Shown: positions 2,996 to 22,772 of the stretch, piece by piece
Layout: each line of letters begins with the position of its first letter
Numbering within the stretch: the stretch's first letter is position 1
The notes under the pieces: model-generated
Seen by the model: only the letters and a program-made list of their open reading frames with translations
Told to the model about the DNA's origin: nothing
Databases searched by the model: none
Virus record (IMG/VR): IMGVR_UViG_3300021600_000003
Coordinates: 83,249-129,865 of that record
Length of the DNA stretch: 46,617 nt
DNA from: a virus
Lineage: Duplodnaviria > Heunggongvirae > Uroviricota > Caudoviricetes
Strand: one strand, 5' to 3'
Program-made: the position numbers and the translations under genes

Positions 2996-3012
2996 CCATT
3001 AAACTAATTACT

Positions 3013-3171
3013 ATGATTTATGGATATTGCACACGTGTGGGTAGAAAATTAAGAGTAGGTGATATTATTGTTACCAAAACTAATACTGTTCATTATTTTT
3101 GGACATTTCAGCAAAATGTTCAGAAATTTCCTTCTCTATCATACCTATTTAGGGTAAAATCTTTGAAATAA
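3013..3171 (+). CDS. Small hypothetical protein (52 aa, MIYGYCTRVGRKLRVGD...)
   Basis: Manually translated; fills the gap between neighbouring genes. Confidence 0.5.
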   Translation: MIYGYCTRVGRKLRVGDIIVTKTNTVHYFWTFQQNVQKFPSLSYLFRVKSLK

Positions 3172-3195
3172 TTATTCATTTTTAAAACATTAGCC

Positions 3196-3486
3196 ATGAA
3201 AGTAGGATCAATTGTTGTATGTCTCTATGTAGATGCATCAGAGGATAAGGATAAAGATATTAAATGGTTACCAGTAATGGATGAGAAAACACCATATATG
3301 ATTCGTTCTATTAAGAATAATTGTGCAAGTGGTAGTATTGGAGTATTATTTGAGGAAGGAGTTATTGGTCTTTTACCATCTGGAAGTGAATTACAGTTTC
3401 CCATTGAAAAAGTTAGAGAAATACTTCCTCCAGAGAATATTAGTGAGCAAATTGAGGAATTTATGAAACAACCCGTAACATCATGA
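3196..3486 (+). CDS. Hypothetical protein, paralog of 19302..19595
   Basis: Shared MKVGSIVV, IKW.PV.DEKTPYMIR, FEEG.IG.LP and LPPE.I.EQ.E blocks. Confidence 0.85.
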   Translation: MKVGSIVVCLYVDASEDKDKDIKWLPVMDEKTPYMIRSIKNNCASGSIGVLFEEGVIGLLPSGSELQFPIEKVREILPPENISEQIEEFMKQPVTS

Positions 3487-3821
3487 AAAATATGATATTG
3501 GGTTTCTATCATGTAATAACAAATAAGCGTACTAAGTACAACGCTTCTTCATATCCATTTTTCTCTAACTCTATATTAAATAATACTGACTTAATTATTG
3601 TAGATAATATATGTAAAGGTAAGCCTAATACTGTATTAGAAACTGTTAGGTTAGCCTTAGAAAAATGTGATAAATGTTATTTTATATTGGATGATGTAAA
3701 ATTTCCATTGGATTTCTCACAATCATATACATGTAAAGAATTACATTGTGTTCTCTCAAATCCTCAGTTTTTTGAAAAGACAGTCTTCATTCTTAATAAT
3801 GAAGTATTAAATACTTGGTAA
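3483..3821 (+). CDS. Hypothetical protein
   Basis: ATGA overlap with the upstream stop. Confidence 0.65.
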   Translation: MKNMILGFYHVITNKRTKYNASSYPFFSNSILNNTDLIIVDNICKGKPNTVLETVRLALEKCDKCYFILDDVKFPLDFSQSYTCKELHCVLSNPQFFEKTVFILNNEVLNTW

Positions 3822-3876
3822 CCCCTCCGGTTTATATGAAAGAGTCATAGCTTTCGTGTGATAGGGGTTACCATCT

Positions 3877-4102
3877 CTAAGGTTAAACATACCAATGAGG
3901 TATATCCTCTCGAGAATGTTTTCAATTAAACCTTAACAAGCCTGTGGGGCTAGTATATCATTCATTATCTATAACTATGTAGGAATACGTAGGAGCTTTT
4001 GCAAGCTTTAAGATATGTAATTAACGTAAATATCCTTATCTACGTGATAAGAATAAAAATGCAATACGTAATGATAACTTAGTGCAGACGTAAAAATCAG
4101 GC
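3877..4102 (+). ncRNA. Hatchet-class self-cleaving ribozyme candidate with expanded L1 and P4
   Basis: P1 TAAGGTT/AACCTTA enclosing GAGAAT, then CAAG-CCTG-TGGGGC ... TTAGTGCAGACGTAAAAAT-CAGGC (P2 GCCTG/CAGGC). Matches the hatchet consensus as I recall it (GAGAAU; CAAA; UGUGGGGC; GUGCAGACGUUAAAA). Confidence 0.8.
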
Positions 4103-4505
4103 AGAGTTCCGATTAAGCATGGTAGCTTTAATTGGTTATCCTCTAACGACGTAAGTTGTTAAAATACTACCACCCAGTGCCTACAAAACGATCGCACTGA
4201 ACACTTAGGTTTATCGGATTCCTAATTACAGAGAGTGGCCGCATGACAAGTTTTGACAGACTTTAAGTCTCTAACTTGCTGATGGCAATAAGCTCTCAAG
4301 TCTTTTAAGGAGAATGGTGTTACTCTCATACATGAACCGTGTATGTATTAAAAGATTTACTCATGTGGTGACATATGAGGCACGCAAAGTAGGAATGGTC
4401 ATCCTCAACGTCCTTATTAAACGGAACTTTACCTAAAACAAACAGGTATTGACTGCAATTATGTCTTTCCTTAATGGCTTTACAGAAACCGTTAGCCATT
4501 CTCAA
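4103..4505 (+). ncRNA. Multi-hairpin structured RNA downstream of the hatchet element
   Basis: No convincing ORF; nested stems (GAGTTCCGAT/ATCGGATTC, TAACGAC-GTAA-GTTGTTA, CAGTGC/GCACTG, GAGAATGG/CCATTCTC). Confidence 0.5.
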
Positions 4506-4530
4506 AATCATTAATCATTAAAAAGTAAAA

Positions 4531-4932
4531 ATGAAAAAATTCCTTTTACTGATTGCTATTACTATTGGCATAGCACAGTTATCCCAAGCACAAACAATTT
4601 ACAAGGTATCTCAATCATCAATATCTCATTATAACTATTCCACTCAATCATGGATAGAAGATAATAGATATTATCCTGACAATATGTCACTTATCATGAA
4701 TGGTATGGACATTACAGTTGATGCTAAGAATCCTGTATACCTACGTTTAAAAACTAATAAAGCAACAACCTATCACAATGGTGATCCTGTACTTAATTAC
4801 GAAGGTATGATGGATGGTGTAATAGTATCCGTAAAATTCTATATGGATAGTGAAGGTGCATTTACAGATATGTGCATCTTTAAAAATACACGAGCTGGAG
4901 GATATATCTGTTTGGATTATCGAATAAACTAA
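4531..4932 (+). CDS. Secreted or periplasmic protein with Sec signal peptide
   Basis: MKKFLLLIAITIGIAQLSQA/Q, typical Bacteroidota signal peptide. Confidence 0.8.
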   Translation: MKKFLLLIAITIGIAQLSQAQTIYKVSQSSISHYNYSTQSWIEDNRYYPDNMSLIMNGMDITVDAKNPVYLRLKTNKATTYHNGDPVLNYEGMMDGVIVSVKFYMDSEGAFTDMCIFKNTRAGGYICLDYRIN

Positions 4933-4937
4933 TTTAC

Positions 4938-5036
4938 GTACAGAAAGGACGACAACCTATCTACACCTTATCGAGGGTGCGAAGTAGATGGGATGCAGGA
5001 GAAACGCATTCTGCAATTGTGTTGTCCCTTCTGTAC
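4938..5036 (+). ncRNA. Three-way-junction structured RNA candidate
   Basis: GTACAGAA-A-GGACGAC pairs with GTTGTCC-C-TTCTGTAC and encloses two further arms. Confidence 0.45.
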
Positions 5037-5298
5037 TATTAAGAAAGAATATTATAGCTTAACTATGATCCCCCAAAAAGGGAGTAGTTAGGACAAGTAG
5101 AGTATAAATAGTAGCTTATAGCAGCTTGAGGAATCTCTCTGTAATATTTCTAATTAATTTCCCCCATCTACTAACTAACTGGAGGACTGTCTGGTATATT
5201 TTGATTTAGACAGTTCCTCCTTTATTTTAAAAATATTCTGGGATGGGAACCTCTAGCTCTTAAATGGGCAGGGGTTCTCTCCTATTAAAAATAAATGT

Positions 5299-5475
5299 AT
5301 GAAAAATTTTATAATAAATATATTTAATACTTTCTTAGGAATCATACTTATTATCTTCTCTATTCCACATGCATTATTTGCTGCTATTAAAGCACTTTAT
5401 CGTAGGGATTATAGTTGTTTTGAGAAGCCAATGGGTGATTTACTAGATGTATTAGAGGAAATCATTGAAAACTAA
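5299..5475 (+). CDS. Small membrane protein (58 aa, MKNFIINIFNTFLGIILIIF...)
   Basis: Manually translated; hydrophobic N-terminal half. Confidence 0.55.
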   Translation: MKNFIINIFNTFLGIILIIFSIPHALFAAIKALYRRDYSCFEKPMGDLLDVLEEIIEN

Positions 5476-5502
5476 TTATTCACAATTCTAAAACTAAACA
5501 CC

Positions 5503-6210
5503 ATGGGTGAGTTAAAGAAAAAATGCACGGTAGTAATGCTACCTACTAATAAATTATTAAGAGCAGGTCAACTTGCTATTGATTTAAAACATAATACCTT
5601 AGTTAAATCAAACTTTGGATTAAAAGTTAAAGAGAGTTCTGTTTCTCCACAACATCTATATATCTGCTTTCAAGAGGAGATAAAAGAAGGAGATTGGTTC
5701 TTATCTGATGATAGAAATCATATAAATGATGTTCCAATATATCGTGTAGAACAATGTATTAAAATTGAAAATGAATGGGTATATGGTTCTATTGATAAAA
5801 TGGGACAAGGGTATAATCCTGATTGGTCTAGTAAAATAATAGCTACTACAGATAGTTCATTAACTATTGGTGCTGAAAAAGCTGGTGAAAATGTATGGCA
5901 CAATCCTTTACCAAGTATATCAGAAGCTTTTATCCAGAAGTACACAGAAATGTACAATAAAGGACAACAGATAAAAGAGGTAATGGTTGAATATTATGAG
6001 ACTTGTGGTATGACAGGAGATGTAAAACAATTAGGCATTCTCATTCCAAAACTTCGTAACAACGAAATCATCATCAGCAAATGCAAAGATACTTGGAATA
6101 GAGAAGAAGTTGAGAAACATTTATCTAACTATGGTGCTGATGTAGCTTATGCTGTACAAAATAAAAAATCAATTCCATATTATGTGGAGTGGTTTGAACA
6201 ACATTTTTAA
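5503..6210 (+). CDS. Hypothetical phage protein (VVMLPT / EEIKEGDW / KIIATTD type)
   Basis: 235-aa ORF; the EIKEGD.W motif recurs in 24026..24469. Confidence 0.8.
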   Translation: MGELKKKCTVVMLPTNKLLRAGQLAIDLKHNTLVKSNFGLKVKESSVSPQHLYICFQEEIKEGDWFLSDDRNHINDVPIYRVEQCIKIENEWVYGSIDKMGQGYNPDWSSKIIATTDSSLTIGAEKAGENVWHNPLPSISEAFIQKYTEMYNKGQQIKEVMVEYYETCGMTGDVKQLGILIPKLRNNEIIISKCKDTWNREEVEKHLSNYGADVAYAVQNKKSIPYYVEWFEQHF

Positions 6211-6227
6211 TTGAAAATCAACTAGTT

Positions 6228-6464
6228 ATGAAAAAAATAGCGTTTCAACTTTTAATTAGCTTAGTTTTAAGCTTTTTAATATTACCATTAGCTTGGATAC
6301 CTGAATCAGTTACCATTAAAGCAAAAGGTACCCCAACAGTATTCTATCCATTCTATGAGTATTGGCAAATGGCTGGCATATATCTTATGGCTATATGTAG
6401 TGGTTTTTGGATAGTAGAACAGTCTGGGAAGCTTTATGATAATTGGAAAGAGAGAAATCTTTGA
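6228..6464 (+). CDS. Small two-TM membrane protein
   Basis: Two hydrophobic segments. Confidence 0.7.
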   Translation: MKKIAFQLLISLVLSFLILPLAWIPESVTIKAKGTPTVFYPFYEYWQMAGIYLMAICSGFWIVEQSGKLYDNWKERNL

Positions 6465-6551
6465 TAGGGTGCAAAATTAACTGGACATAGTAGGACAACC
6501 CTACATACTTAGTTGGTGGTATAAGTGACCATAAACAGCTTACCTAATCAT
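6462..6551 (+). ncRNA. Structured RNA motif A, copy 2
   Basis: See 2438-2535; begins at the stop codon of the upstream gene. Confidence 0.7.
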
Positions 6552-7223
6552 TCCCCAATGCATTCTCACGTGGATATAAGCATCAATAGCAGAGATTCCC
6601 AATTTAGGGTGCCATTCTGTGAGATGTAAAACCACCTGATTAAGACTATAGTGGTAAGGCAAAGAGTCCTTATCTGATTTCTTAATCAGCTCCCAAGGGT
6701 GATCAGTTGTAATATAAGGAAGGCTCTGAAATAAACCATTTAATGAGCAAAACAAAGAACTTTGTTGGTAAAAGTTCATCCTACAAGTACACAATAAAAG
6801 TGGAAATATATTACAACTGAGTGCAGAGGGATTTTTAAATGTGCAGAGTAGGGTTAATATAAGAGTTGCAAATCTTATGTTATTACAATCATTGCTGAAA
6901 ACCTACAGTGCCTTGTACTTAAAATAGTTGCAATGAAGCAAGTAAAAGCTAACAATGGAGAGTTTTGTTATAGGGATGCTAATACCTATAATGTTTGTAC
7001 CAAATTTTACAAAAACTTATAATTAGCATTAATGCATCATTTGGATTCAAAAAATACAAAACATGATAAAGTTTATCTTAAAATACTGGATAGAGATTGT
7101 TATGCTTATATGCTTTGCACTTATAATGTGTGCATGCACACCAAGATATATCTCTGTAGAAAATGCTGCAAATGGCAAAGCCAAATGTGGTCAATGGGTA
7201 CGTTAATTCTTAAAAACAAACAT

Positions 7224-7418
7224 ATGAGCAAAAATCATCCCGCACTTCGTACTTGGGACGAAGTAAAAGTAACTCGTGGTAAGCTTCGTGGTAAGCTAAC
7301 AGATGAATTGGTTAGAGAAATCTGGCCTTCTAGTACAATAAAAGTAAATAATACCAATATTGATCCATCACATATTCATCCCACAGGGCTTAAGAAACCC
7401 ATTATTAAAGTTCGTTAA
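7224..7418 (+). CDS. Small basic hypothetical protein (likely start MSKNHP)
   Basis: In-frame ATG within ORF 7032..7418, after an A-rich leader. Confidence 0.55.
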   Translation: MSKNHPALRTWDEVKVTRGKLRGKLTDELVREIWPSSTIKVNNTNIDPSHIHPTGLKKPIIKVR

Positions 7419-7489
7419 GAGTGCTATTTTTCACACTCCTACATAAAGTGTTTATACACAGTTATCTAGGAGTTTTTAAAACAAATACT

Positions 7490-7672
7490 ATGAAGTTATT
7501 TCTTAGTGGATTATTATGTCGTTTAAGTCATCGTATTAAAATGACACAAAAATCTTTATTTATTGATATGGTTACACGCCAAAGAGTGCATCAATATGAA
7601 TGTAAGAAGTGTGGTTCTTTTATGTCTACACATTCTCGAATATCATATCGTGCATACTGGCCAATCAAATAA
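7490..7672 (+). CDS. Small hypothetical protein with CxxC
   Basis: ATG at 7490 within ORF 7421..7672; ECKKCG. Confidence 0.55.
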   Translation: MKLFLSGLLCRLSHRIKMTQKSLFIDMVTRQRVHQYECKKCGSFMSTHSRISYRAYWPIK

Positions 7673-7952
7673 TTGCCTGAATCAAGTATCTACATGCGGA
7701 AACGCCTAACGAAGGTAAGAGGTAGTAATACCTAAAGACGTGCTAGAATTCTGAATGATCAACTGAACAATTTAACTTGACGGTTAGATTTTTACATTAG
7801 GACATGGAGTGTGTAAGACATCCATGAGAAAGGACGACAGCATGATTGATAGCCAAATAGGGCAATAATATTAAGTGTCATGGGTAAGTACATGTATGAA
7901 ACAGTTATCTTACGAGATACTGGAGACATCATTTACTTGCCCATGGTATTTT

Positions 7953-8000
7953 TATGGAAAATATTAGGGATTATTGAGAGTTCGAATCTCTCTTCCATAC
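7953..8000 (+). ncRNA. tRNA-like mini element (acceptor-like stem plus perfect T-arm, no anticodon arm)
   Basis: TATGGAA/TTCCATA 7 bp; GAGAG-TTCGAAT-CTCTC T-arm; 16-nt connector only. Confidence 0.55.
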
Positions 8001-8177
8001 TAAAATTATTTTTATGACTCCCCTTCAACACTTATTTCTTATAATGCGTGACAAAAGCTTAAAGAAAATACATGATCATACTATATTTTGGATAAAAGGT
8101 AGTACCTTTGTGGCTAGACCGCAACATATAAAGTATAATTTTTGTAAAAACTAATTTTTCAACCAAAAACAATTATT

Positions 8178-22694: not shown

Positions 22695-22772
22695 TGGAGA
22701 CGGGAATGAGACTCGAACTCATGATCTCTAGGGTGGCGGCCCTAGTAACTTAACCAACTCGTCCATCCCGTC
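22695..22772 (-). tRNA. Atypical tRNA (Gly-GCC-like) with expanded anticodon loop; possibly a pseudo-tRNA
   Basis: Minus strand reads GACGGGA TG GACGAGTTGGTTAAGTT A CTAGG GCCGCCAC CCTAG AGATC ATGAG TTCGAGT CTCAT TCCCGTC T CCA. Confidence 0.75.

Follow-up and report, generated by a model that had tools for sequence, protein, structure and literature searches.

Hatchet ribozymes and the locus of a lake-water phage

Hatchets are among the rarest classes of self-cleaving ribozymes. About 210 representatives, all of them metagenomic, were described by Li et al. (2015), and a 2026 preprint gives the class as largely confined to genomes of the Crassvirales (doi 10.64898/2026.03.07.710320). Only one other self-cleaving class, the ribozymes termed HDV-like after hepatitis delta virus, lies wholly 3' of its cut (PMC6561176). 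With both classes the upstream RNA comes away clean and the downstream RNA is capped by the ribozyme, whereas their folds and catalytic residues are unrelated. Hatchets with a helix P1 of 6 bp (Rfam family RF02678; env10, PMC6561176; Ht-1, PMC4604424) are built in the order P0-P1-CAA-P2-L2-P3-L3-P4, where P denotes paired segments and L loops, with an L1 of 7-8 nt. A hatchet self-cleaving ribozyme is coded at 3877-4102 (+ strand) of a 46,617-nt stretch of a lake-water phage genome, hereafter the window, which covers positions 83,249 to 129,865 of the IMG/VR virus record IMGVR_UViG_3300021600_000003. The record has 129,865 bp and a CheckV completeness of about 90 %. We consider the element, with a probability of roughly 60 %, a genuine but expanded hatchet of the 6-bp-P1 type, which would cut a phage message between two small genes. 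The results show class membership by the covariance model, the conservation of the core, the design of P1 and an inner helix P1a, and the conservation of this design in a homologue, L180, on a 1701-bp metagenome contig (JGI Ga0181360_101945). What is said below on catalysis, on the precise position of the cut, on co-transcription and on the purpose of the element is put forward as prediction.

With the described 6-bp-P1 hatchets the window element shares the order of its parts, the core nucleotides, the wobble G32.U62, the pair A3-U17, the bulges in L3, an upstream hairpin P0 and UCU before the cut (residue numbering follows the env10 crystal, PMC6561176). It differs from them by an L1 of 48 nt that contains a helix, by a first P1 pair C.A, by an A at position 71, by an L3 that is 2 nt longer on each side and nearly fully zipped, and by a P4 at the long end of the family range. 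The new features are the architecture of the L1 insert, present in two sequences, and the context of a lone ribozyme in a lake phage.

Covariance match and ribozyme core

The Rfam Hatchet model (RF02678) matched 3918-4102 on the + strand over its full length (1-133) with 55.4 bits, at an E value of 1.1e-8 for the 46.6-kb window and of 7.5e-12 in the genome search. This is above the curated gathering score of 51 bits and bears out the hatchet class proposed in a sequence-only reading of the window, which had named the lack of a covariance-model hit as grounds for dropping it. The segment CCTGTGGGGC alone has a chance expectation of 0.02 occurrences per window, and the set of blocks together with the covariance score is far beyond chance. 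The match was unique in the whole record, with no second ribozyme match. The other 84 kb contained 12 tRNA genes and, in the RNA-family scan, no further ribozyme and no RAGATH RNA. A permissive Rfam scan of 3000-6000 gave nothing credible besides the hatchet, and no open reading frame (ORF) of at least 40 aa overlaps 3822-4313 on either strand.

Following the Rfam alignment, the invariant linker CAA (C20 A21 A22) is located at 3937-3939, the 5' strand of P2, GCCUG, at 3940-3944 and its 3' strand CAGGC, the 3' end of the ribozyme, at 4098-4102. The 5' side of L2 (UGGG, 3945-3948) holds U28 G29 G30 G31 with the guanines of the catalytic core, and the block TGGGGC extends over 3945-3950. P3 starts with GCU (3949-3951) and continues until 3955 into a zipped L3, in which A, G and U are paired and A3955 is bulged. 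The 3' counterpart at 4077-4085 consists of the L3 side (A and C paired, U4079 or U4080 bulged) and the P3 strand AGU(G)C, so that 3949-3951 pairs with 4081-4083, the wobble G32.U62 included. The 3' side of L2, GCAGACGUAAAAAU at 4084-4097, contains G63 C64 A65 G66 (4084-4087) and A73-A75 (4094-4096), and the longer block TTAGTGCAGACGTAAAAAT occupies 4079-4097. Thus all residues rated as highly conserved (C20-A22, U28-G31, G63-G66 and A73-A75; PMC6561176) are present. Position 71 is the one core position that departs from the Rfam consensus; its A in place of U is also found in L180 and in many freshwater hatchets. The stem order P2, P3, P4 is kept, with an asymmetric L2 between P2 and P3, a P2 of 5 bp and a P4 of 7 bp. 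The three stems are intact in the window and every pair is retained in L180. The blocks named in the sequence-only reading were all found in their order and places, its 'CAAG linker' with one correction: the linker is CAA and the G is the first base of P2.

In minimum free energy (MFE) folds and in the alignment, the P4 domain (3956-4076) is closed by UAUCAUU (3956-3962) and AAUGAUA (4070-4076) around a branched insert of 107 nt. The domain totals about 115-120 nt, and its 3' segment AAAUGCAAUACG is common to the window and L180. The sequence-only reading had identified this extension with the right closing helix and had counted it among the large insertions. A large P4 is ordinary in the family, with a spacing from TGTGGGG to the 3' core of 47-131 nt and multi-hairpin inserts in other members. 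A swap of 44 nt of P4 for a tetraloop did no harm (Li et al., PMC4604424).

P1, the expanded L1 and the predicted cleavage site

The Rfam alignment begins at 3918 with a poor local P1 (UCAA/UUAA, one non-standard pair). Several observations support that P1 is misplaced there and that the real helix is formed by CUAAGG at 3877-3882 (positions 1-6) and CCUUAA at 3931-3936 (positions 14-19), as the inverted repeat and RNAalifold indicate. The long-range P1 is preferred because of the strength of the helix, a near-identity to hatchets of gut phages, the UC motif before the cut, the place of P0 and the design of L180. The arms TAAGGTT (3878-3884) and AACCTTA (3929-3935) belong to an inverted repeat of 10 nt with 90 % complementarity (3878-3887 / 3926-3935) that dominates all thermodynamic folds, and UU at 3883-3884 can lengthen the helix. 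One of the commonest gut hatchets reads ATCT-TTAAGG-TGAGAAT-CCTTAA-CAA with the cut after ATCT, the window ATCT-CTAAGG-(48 nt)-CCTTAA-CAA.

For the comparison, pattern scans covered IMG/VR viral contigs, JGI/ENA metagenome contigs and species genomes and gave at least 280 hatchet-bearing loci. A motif-anchored screen of these loci yielded at least 323 hatchet instances with at least about 65 distinct 5' halves. The combination of a 6-bp P1 with an L1 of 7 nt was found in at least 204 instances, with 8 nt in at least 40 and with 5 nt in at least 16; a 3-bp P1 with an L1 of 5 nt occurred in at least 57. Positions -3/-2 are UC in nearly all of the 53 distinct 6-bp-P1 hatchets among the matches listed, and the window conforms. 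ATCT, TTCT or GTCT precede the cut in most hatchets among the matches listed, and AUCU does so in the window. The third P1 pair (3-17) is A-U in 46 of these 53 sequences and in the window as well.

The env10 ribozyme is cleaved immediately 5' of nucleotide 1, a member of the first P1 pair (PMC6561176). Since the env10 cut adjoins this nucleotide, the scissile bond of the window is predicted between U3876 (-1) and C3877 (+1), by homology with the 6-bp-P1 hatchets. Activity is kept with U, A or C at position -1 (PMC6561176). The cut 'near 3877' suggested in the sequence-only reading is thereby narrowed to a predicted bond, and its long-range P1 enclosing an insertion agrees with the design and covariation of L180, with UCU 5' of the cut and with P0 ending 3 nt upstream.

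The expanded L1 (3883-3930) has 48 nt instead of the usual 5-8 nt. In MFE folds it consists of UU, the inner helix P1a (AAACAU, 3885-3890 / AUGUUU, 3916-3921), a small apical hairpin, the motif GAGAAU (3912-3917) and a 3' segment UCAAUUAAA (3922-3930). Separate MFE folds of P1 with L1 gave for the window and L180 the succession of P1, a 3'-strand bulge of 6-7 nt (window UCAAUUA, L180 AGAUUA), P1a and the apical hairpin or hairpins. An extra hairpin in L1 had been noticed already from the letters and recurs here with the same design in the homologue. Such an insert is not described in PMC4604424 or PMC6561176, and the L1 of the Rfam model has 7 positions. The Rfam model misaligns P1 of the L1-insert variants and scores them barely above the threshold, so that further expanded members may be missed. 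Two other placements of P1 were dropped. An alignment of the 5' halves with MAFFT set the canonical 5' strand of P1 on GUUUUCA, a gap-penalty artefact, because GUUUUCA cannot pair with CCUUAA. Alternative partners for the 3' strand, AUGAGG at 3895-3900 in the window and UAAUGG in L180, are within chance for AU-rich inserts.

Conservation in a second metagenomic sequence

Among the matches listed, with their at least about 65 distinct hatchets, a long L1 was present only in the window and in L180. The ribozyme of L180, on the minus strand at 1089-855 of the contig, scored 59.0 bits with the Hatchet model, P1 likewise being misplaced by Rfam, and it aligns with the window across the entire ribozyme. 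Both share the insertion point in L1, with the junctions GG-TTAAAC-(insert)-GTTT-(AG/TCA)-ATTAAA-CC, the closing helix of P4 with the segment AAAUGCAAUACG(G)UAAUGAUAA, a P0, and an ORF-free spacer after the ribozyme. L180 differs in a longer P1a (8 bp, AAACAAAG / UUUUGUUU), in two apical hairpins and in the lack of GAGAAU; its upstream ORFs, downstream ORFs and spacer are unrelated to those of the window. Exact-protein look-ups of the L180 neighbours returned the same contig only.

RNAalifold on both sequences kept P1, P2, P3, the zipped L3 and P4. The P1 pair 4-16 (3880/3933) is A-U in the window, U-A in L180 and C-G in the three environmental hatchets L169, L252 and L221, so that three different Watson-Crick pairs occur at this place within the clade. 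At the pair 3953-4078 of the L3 zipper the window has G-C, against C-G in L180. Because the ribozyme of L180 is kept while its flanks are unrelated, we infer a selection on the RNA itself.

More conventional hatchets come from lake and environmental phages. L169, L221, L252 and the UUAGCAAA group possess a canonical L1 without inner helix at scores of 59-75 bits, and L169, L221 and L252 share with the window the P3/L3 sequence GGGGCUAGU ... AACUUAGUGC. In freshwater relatives L1 measures 8 nt and follows the pattern UU...AAA, e.g., UUAGCAAA, AUGUUAAA and UUGAUAAA. The window and L180 keep both ends of such a loop (UU ... AUUAAA) with P1a inserted between them.

The same region can be drawn in another way, as an active hatchet with a 3-bp P1 formed by UUA (3926-3928) and UAA (3934-3936) around the loop AACCU, with a cut at A3925/U3926. 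P0 would then be the inserted helix 3885-3921 with GAGAAU in its loop, and 3878-3884 would compete with P1 or regulate it. Rfam aligns a local P1 behind the insert for the window as well as for L180; both sequences allow a P1 of 3 bp with a loop of 5 nt, in the window with a proper U1-A19 pair, and 40 % of the hatchets have a P1 of 3 bp (PMC4604424). Moreover, GUGARRRU adjoins the 3' strand of P0 in 23 of 26 distinct 3-bp cases among the matches listed, and CGAGAAU of the window has the same place. However, three A-U/U-A pairs cannot rival a long-range helix of 7-8 bp, the compensatory change at 3880/3933 fits the long P1 only, and UC at -3/-2 is present before 3877 but missing before 3926 in both sequences. 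Furthermore, a separate P0 already precedes 3877 in the window, with its counterpart in L180, and L180 lacks GAGAAU. A short P1 is therefore an unlikely reading of this locus.

The motif GAGAAU deserves a separate remark. The sequence-only reading had placed it inside P1, where it is indeed found (3912-3917). It is located in the loop of the inserted helix and not at the canonical L1 position, and L180 lacks it; a role as the canonical L1 block is thus doubtful, and the motif is kept only within the 3-bp-P1 reading. Like the motif of a canonical L1 it lies immediately 5' of the closing strand, and a chance match of 6 bases to the gut L1 motif within a 29-nt loop is not very likely.

Contact of L1 with L3 and catalytic competence

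In the env10 crystal, L1 (U7-U13) docks on L3, with minor-groove triples of A12/U13 and with U39/U59 extruded, and a mutant without the extruded L3 residues was inactive (PMC6561176). Ht-1 was active with the P1 loop deleted and P1 assembled from two strands (PMC4604424). Both the window and L180 keep the bulges of L3 (A3955, U4079/4080) as well as AUUAAA at the 3' end of L1. We infer that L1 remains docked on L3 through this end, with P1a projecting as a peripheral arm. The insertion of a helix into the very loop that contacts L3 bears on the question of how much contact is needed.

Several points weigh against a genuine and active 6-bp-P1 hatchet. Among the matches listed the design is present in two sequences only, and the covariation amounts to very few events. 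The score of 55.4 bits is the lowest of the hatchets scored, most of the others reaching 68-104 bits. The first P1 pair (1-19), C3877.A3936, is a C.A mismatch, at the place where the crystal has U1-A19 stacked on the catalytic pair C20-G30. A P1 of exactly 3 or 6 bp was reported as important (PMC4604424), the L1-L3 contact as crucial, and the window carries an inserted helix in L1 where this contact normally forms. The promoter and terminator inferences given below are simple pattern scans.

These observations might instead describe a relic derived from a hatchet, which no longer cleaves and is kept as a structured spacer or as an element for protein binding or stabilisation. The lowest score, the mismatch beside the scissile bond and the disruption of the canonical docking of a 7-8 nt L1 on L3, given the inactive L3-contact mutant (PMC6561176), point in this direction. 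We regard such a loss of function as improbable: all nucleotides of the catalytic core are intact, P2, P3 and P4 are perfect, and the bulged L3 residues are still there. Pair 1-19 is mismatched in 7 of the 53 distinct 6-bp hatchets among the matches listed, so the mismatch is known from other natural hatchets, and the preservation of the expanded design in L180 between unrelated flanks, with compensatory changes, argues for selection on the fold.

The inserted L1 helix and the branched P4 domain co-occur in both examples. They might together form a tertiary module of a new kind, taking the place of the L1-L3 contact or gating it. Cleavage, and thereby the parting of the upstream mRNA from the RNA led by the ribozyme, would then hinge on a folding event or a bound factor, and this regulated hatchet would also mature an undescribed structured phage RNA of about 430 nt; this is a speculative proposal to which we attach little probability.

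Upstream hairpin P0 and the preceding gene

The ribozyme follows an ORF of 112 aa without known family (3483-3821, + strand), which had no PHROG or Pfam match and no relative in viral contigs. At its end a repeat search found P0, a hairpin with a perfect 11-bp stem TGGTAACCCCT / AGGGGTTACCA (3816-3826 / 3863-3873) and a 36-nt loop. Its 5' arm covers the TAA stop codon of the ORF and its 3' arm ends 3 nt before the predicted cut. The hairpin that the sequence-only reading had given as 3817-3872 thus exists and is one pair longer. About 90 % of the hatchets have a P0 at a distance of a few nucleotides from the cleavage site, on its 5' side (PMC4604424), and P0 is described as unconserved and dispensable (Li et al. 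2015, PMC4604424). In L180, P0 has 9 bp and ends 6 nt before the cut of that ribozyme. It is GC-rich (GAGCCCUGU / ACAGGGCUU, about 1125-1090 on the minus strand) and is followed by a U-rich run into the cleavage site, and it looks like an intrinsic terminator placed directly before the ribozyme.

A motif was recognised in the P0 loops of other hatchets. GUGARRRU was present in this loop for 23 of 26 distinct flanks upstream of 3-bp-P1 hatchets among the matches listed, versus 7 of 133 for the 6-bp-P1 type. Such loops occur about the 3-bp-P1 hatchets of gut phage contigs of crAss size (L007, L013, L023, L117 and others), 60 nt upstream of the ribozyme. GUGARRRU equals the motif of L1 (UGAGAAU) by which the env10 crystal has L1 docked on L3, and the P0 stems differ between the lineages seen. 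This suggests that P0 supplies the L3 contact when P1 has only 3 bp.

Transcript context and downstream spacer

Every ORF of the window runs along the + strand. The pattern scans found no Bacteroidota-type -7 box (TAnnTTTG) on the + strand of 3101-8103, and the first + strand terminator-like site past the ribozyme at 4994-5015. Because of the common orientation of the ORFs, the lack of TAnnTTTG within 3101-8103 and the lack of a terminator before 4994, the ribozyme is probably embedded in a multi-gene transcript. The sequencing runs that contain the stretch include none recorded as RNA; two lake-water DNA runs carry it with identical sequence and zero variants.

On the preferred reading as a hatchet that cuts between two genes, the ribozyme would be transcribed within a + strand multi-gene message, and a Mg2+-dependent internal transesterification would cut between U3876 and C3877. 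The upstream product would be the mRNA of ORF 3483-3821, ending in P0 and 3 further nucleotides with a 2',3'-cyclic phosphate. The downstream product would start with a 5'-OH and comprise the folded ribozyme, a structured spacer of 428 nt and the next ORF (4531-4932). Cleavage would thus give both parts of the transcript separate fates and uncouple their stability, which appears to be the most economical reading of the purpose. The release of a downstream structured RNA from the mRNA, as proposed in the sequence-only reading, is plausible.

The spacer (4103-4530, + strand) is ORF-free and strongly folded, with an MFE z-score of -3.4 and none of 100 shuffles as stable. A long-range helix of 9 bp, AGAGUUCCG (4103-4111) / CGGAACUUU (4422-4430), closes a multi-hairpin domain of about 320 nt. 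The spacer had no Rfam match at E<=1 and, with MAFFT and sensitive blastn, no sequence relative among the collected loci. The segment could serve ORF 4531-4932 as a long structured leader or form an RNA of its own. This ORF, of 133 aa and starting with MKKFLLLI, is an orphan on the + strand without a relative in a set of 5.8 billion proteins.

The second possibility has consequences for the function of the ribozyme, which may, rather than process an mRNA, set the 5' terminus of a stand-alone, non-coding RNA with about 650 nt (ribozyme and 4103-4530). The stability of the ORF-free spacer and its closing helix are in line with this, as is the spacer after the L180 ribozyme, which is also ORF-free, with about 320 nt and a z-score of -3.3. 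The hatchets of gut phages likewise precede 200-650 nt without an ORF of at least 70 aa, amid RAGATH RNAs and tRNAs. On the other side, no common sequence was detected in the spacers of the window, L180 and L169, that of L169 is not unusually stable (z -0.7), and the spacer of the window matched no Rfam family. No terminator-like site precedes ORF 4531-4932, and a long structured 5' leader explains the data equally. We hold the stand-alone RNA for possible, more so than a short P1 or a relic, and still doubtful.

Hatchets of other phages

The hatchets of gut phages of crAss size belong to the same class, in phages of broadly the same kind, and they too lie just after an ORF on the same strand and are followed by ORF-free sequence. 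Their loci differ in carrying 2-4 hatchets, interleaved with RAGATH-6/7/9/14, tRNAs and a permuted tmRNA, whereas the window phage has a single hatchet and none of those RNAs of the gut loci nearby. In gut loci such as L005, L019, L055, L007, L107 and others, hatchets were seen among RAGATH-6, -7, -7-assoc, -9 and -14, one tRNA and a permuted tmRNA. A lone hatchet between two small genes, flanked by P0 and by a long folded spacer, offers a simpler functional test case than the gut clusters.

The phage itself had no relative among the INPHARED phages by megablast or blastn, and three neighbouring proteins were without relatives in IMG/VR. Among the other loci, L176 combined within 4 kb a hatchet (143-270, 59.3 bits), a group I intron (3541-3735, 61.9 bits) and a tRNA (4048-4118). 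L195 and L286 contained the exact 3' core TTAGTGCAGACGTTAAAATCAGG of the hatchet, L195 with the 3' sequence of P4 upstream. Neither had a TGNGGGG 5' core within 400 nt upstream, and these are possibly truncated or split copies. In the window, a tRNA-like gene lies at 22695-22772 on the minus strand, opposite to all ORFs; it scored 49.2 bits with the Rfam tRNA model and was reported by ARAGORN as 'tRNA-???' with an irregular anticodon loop.

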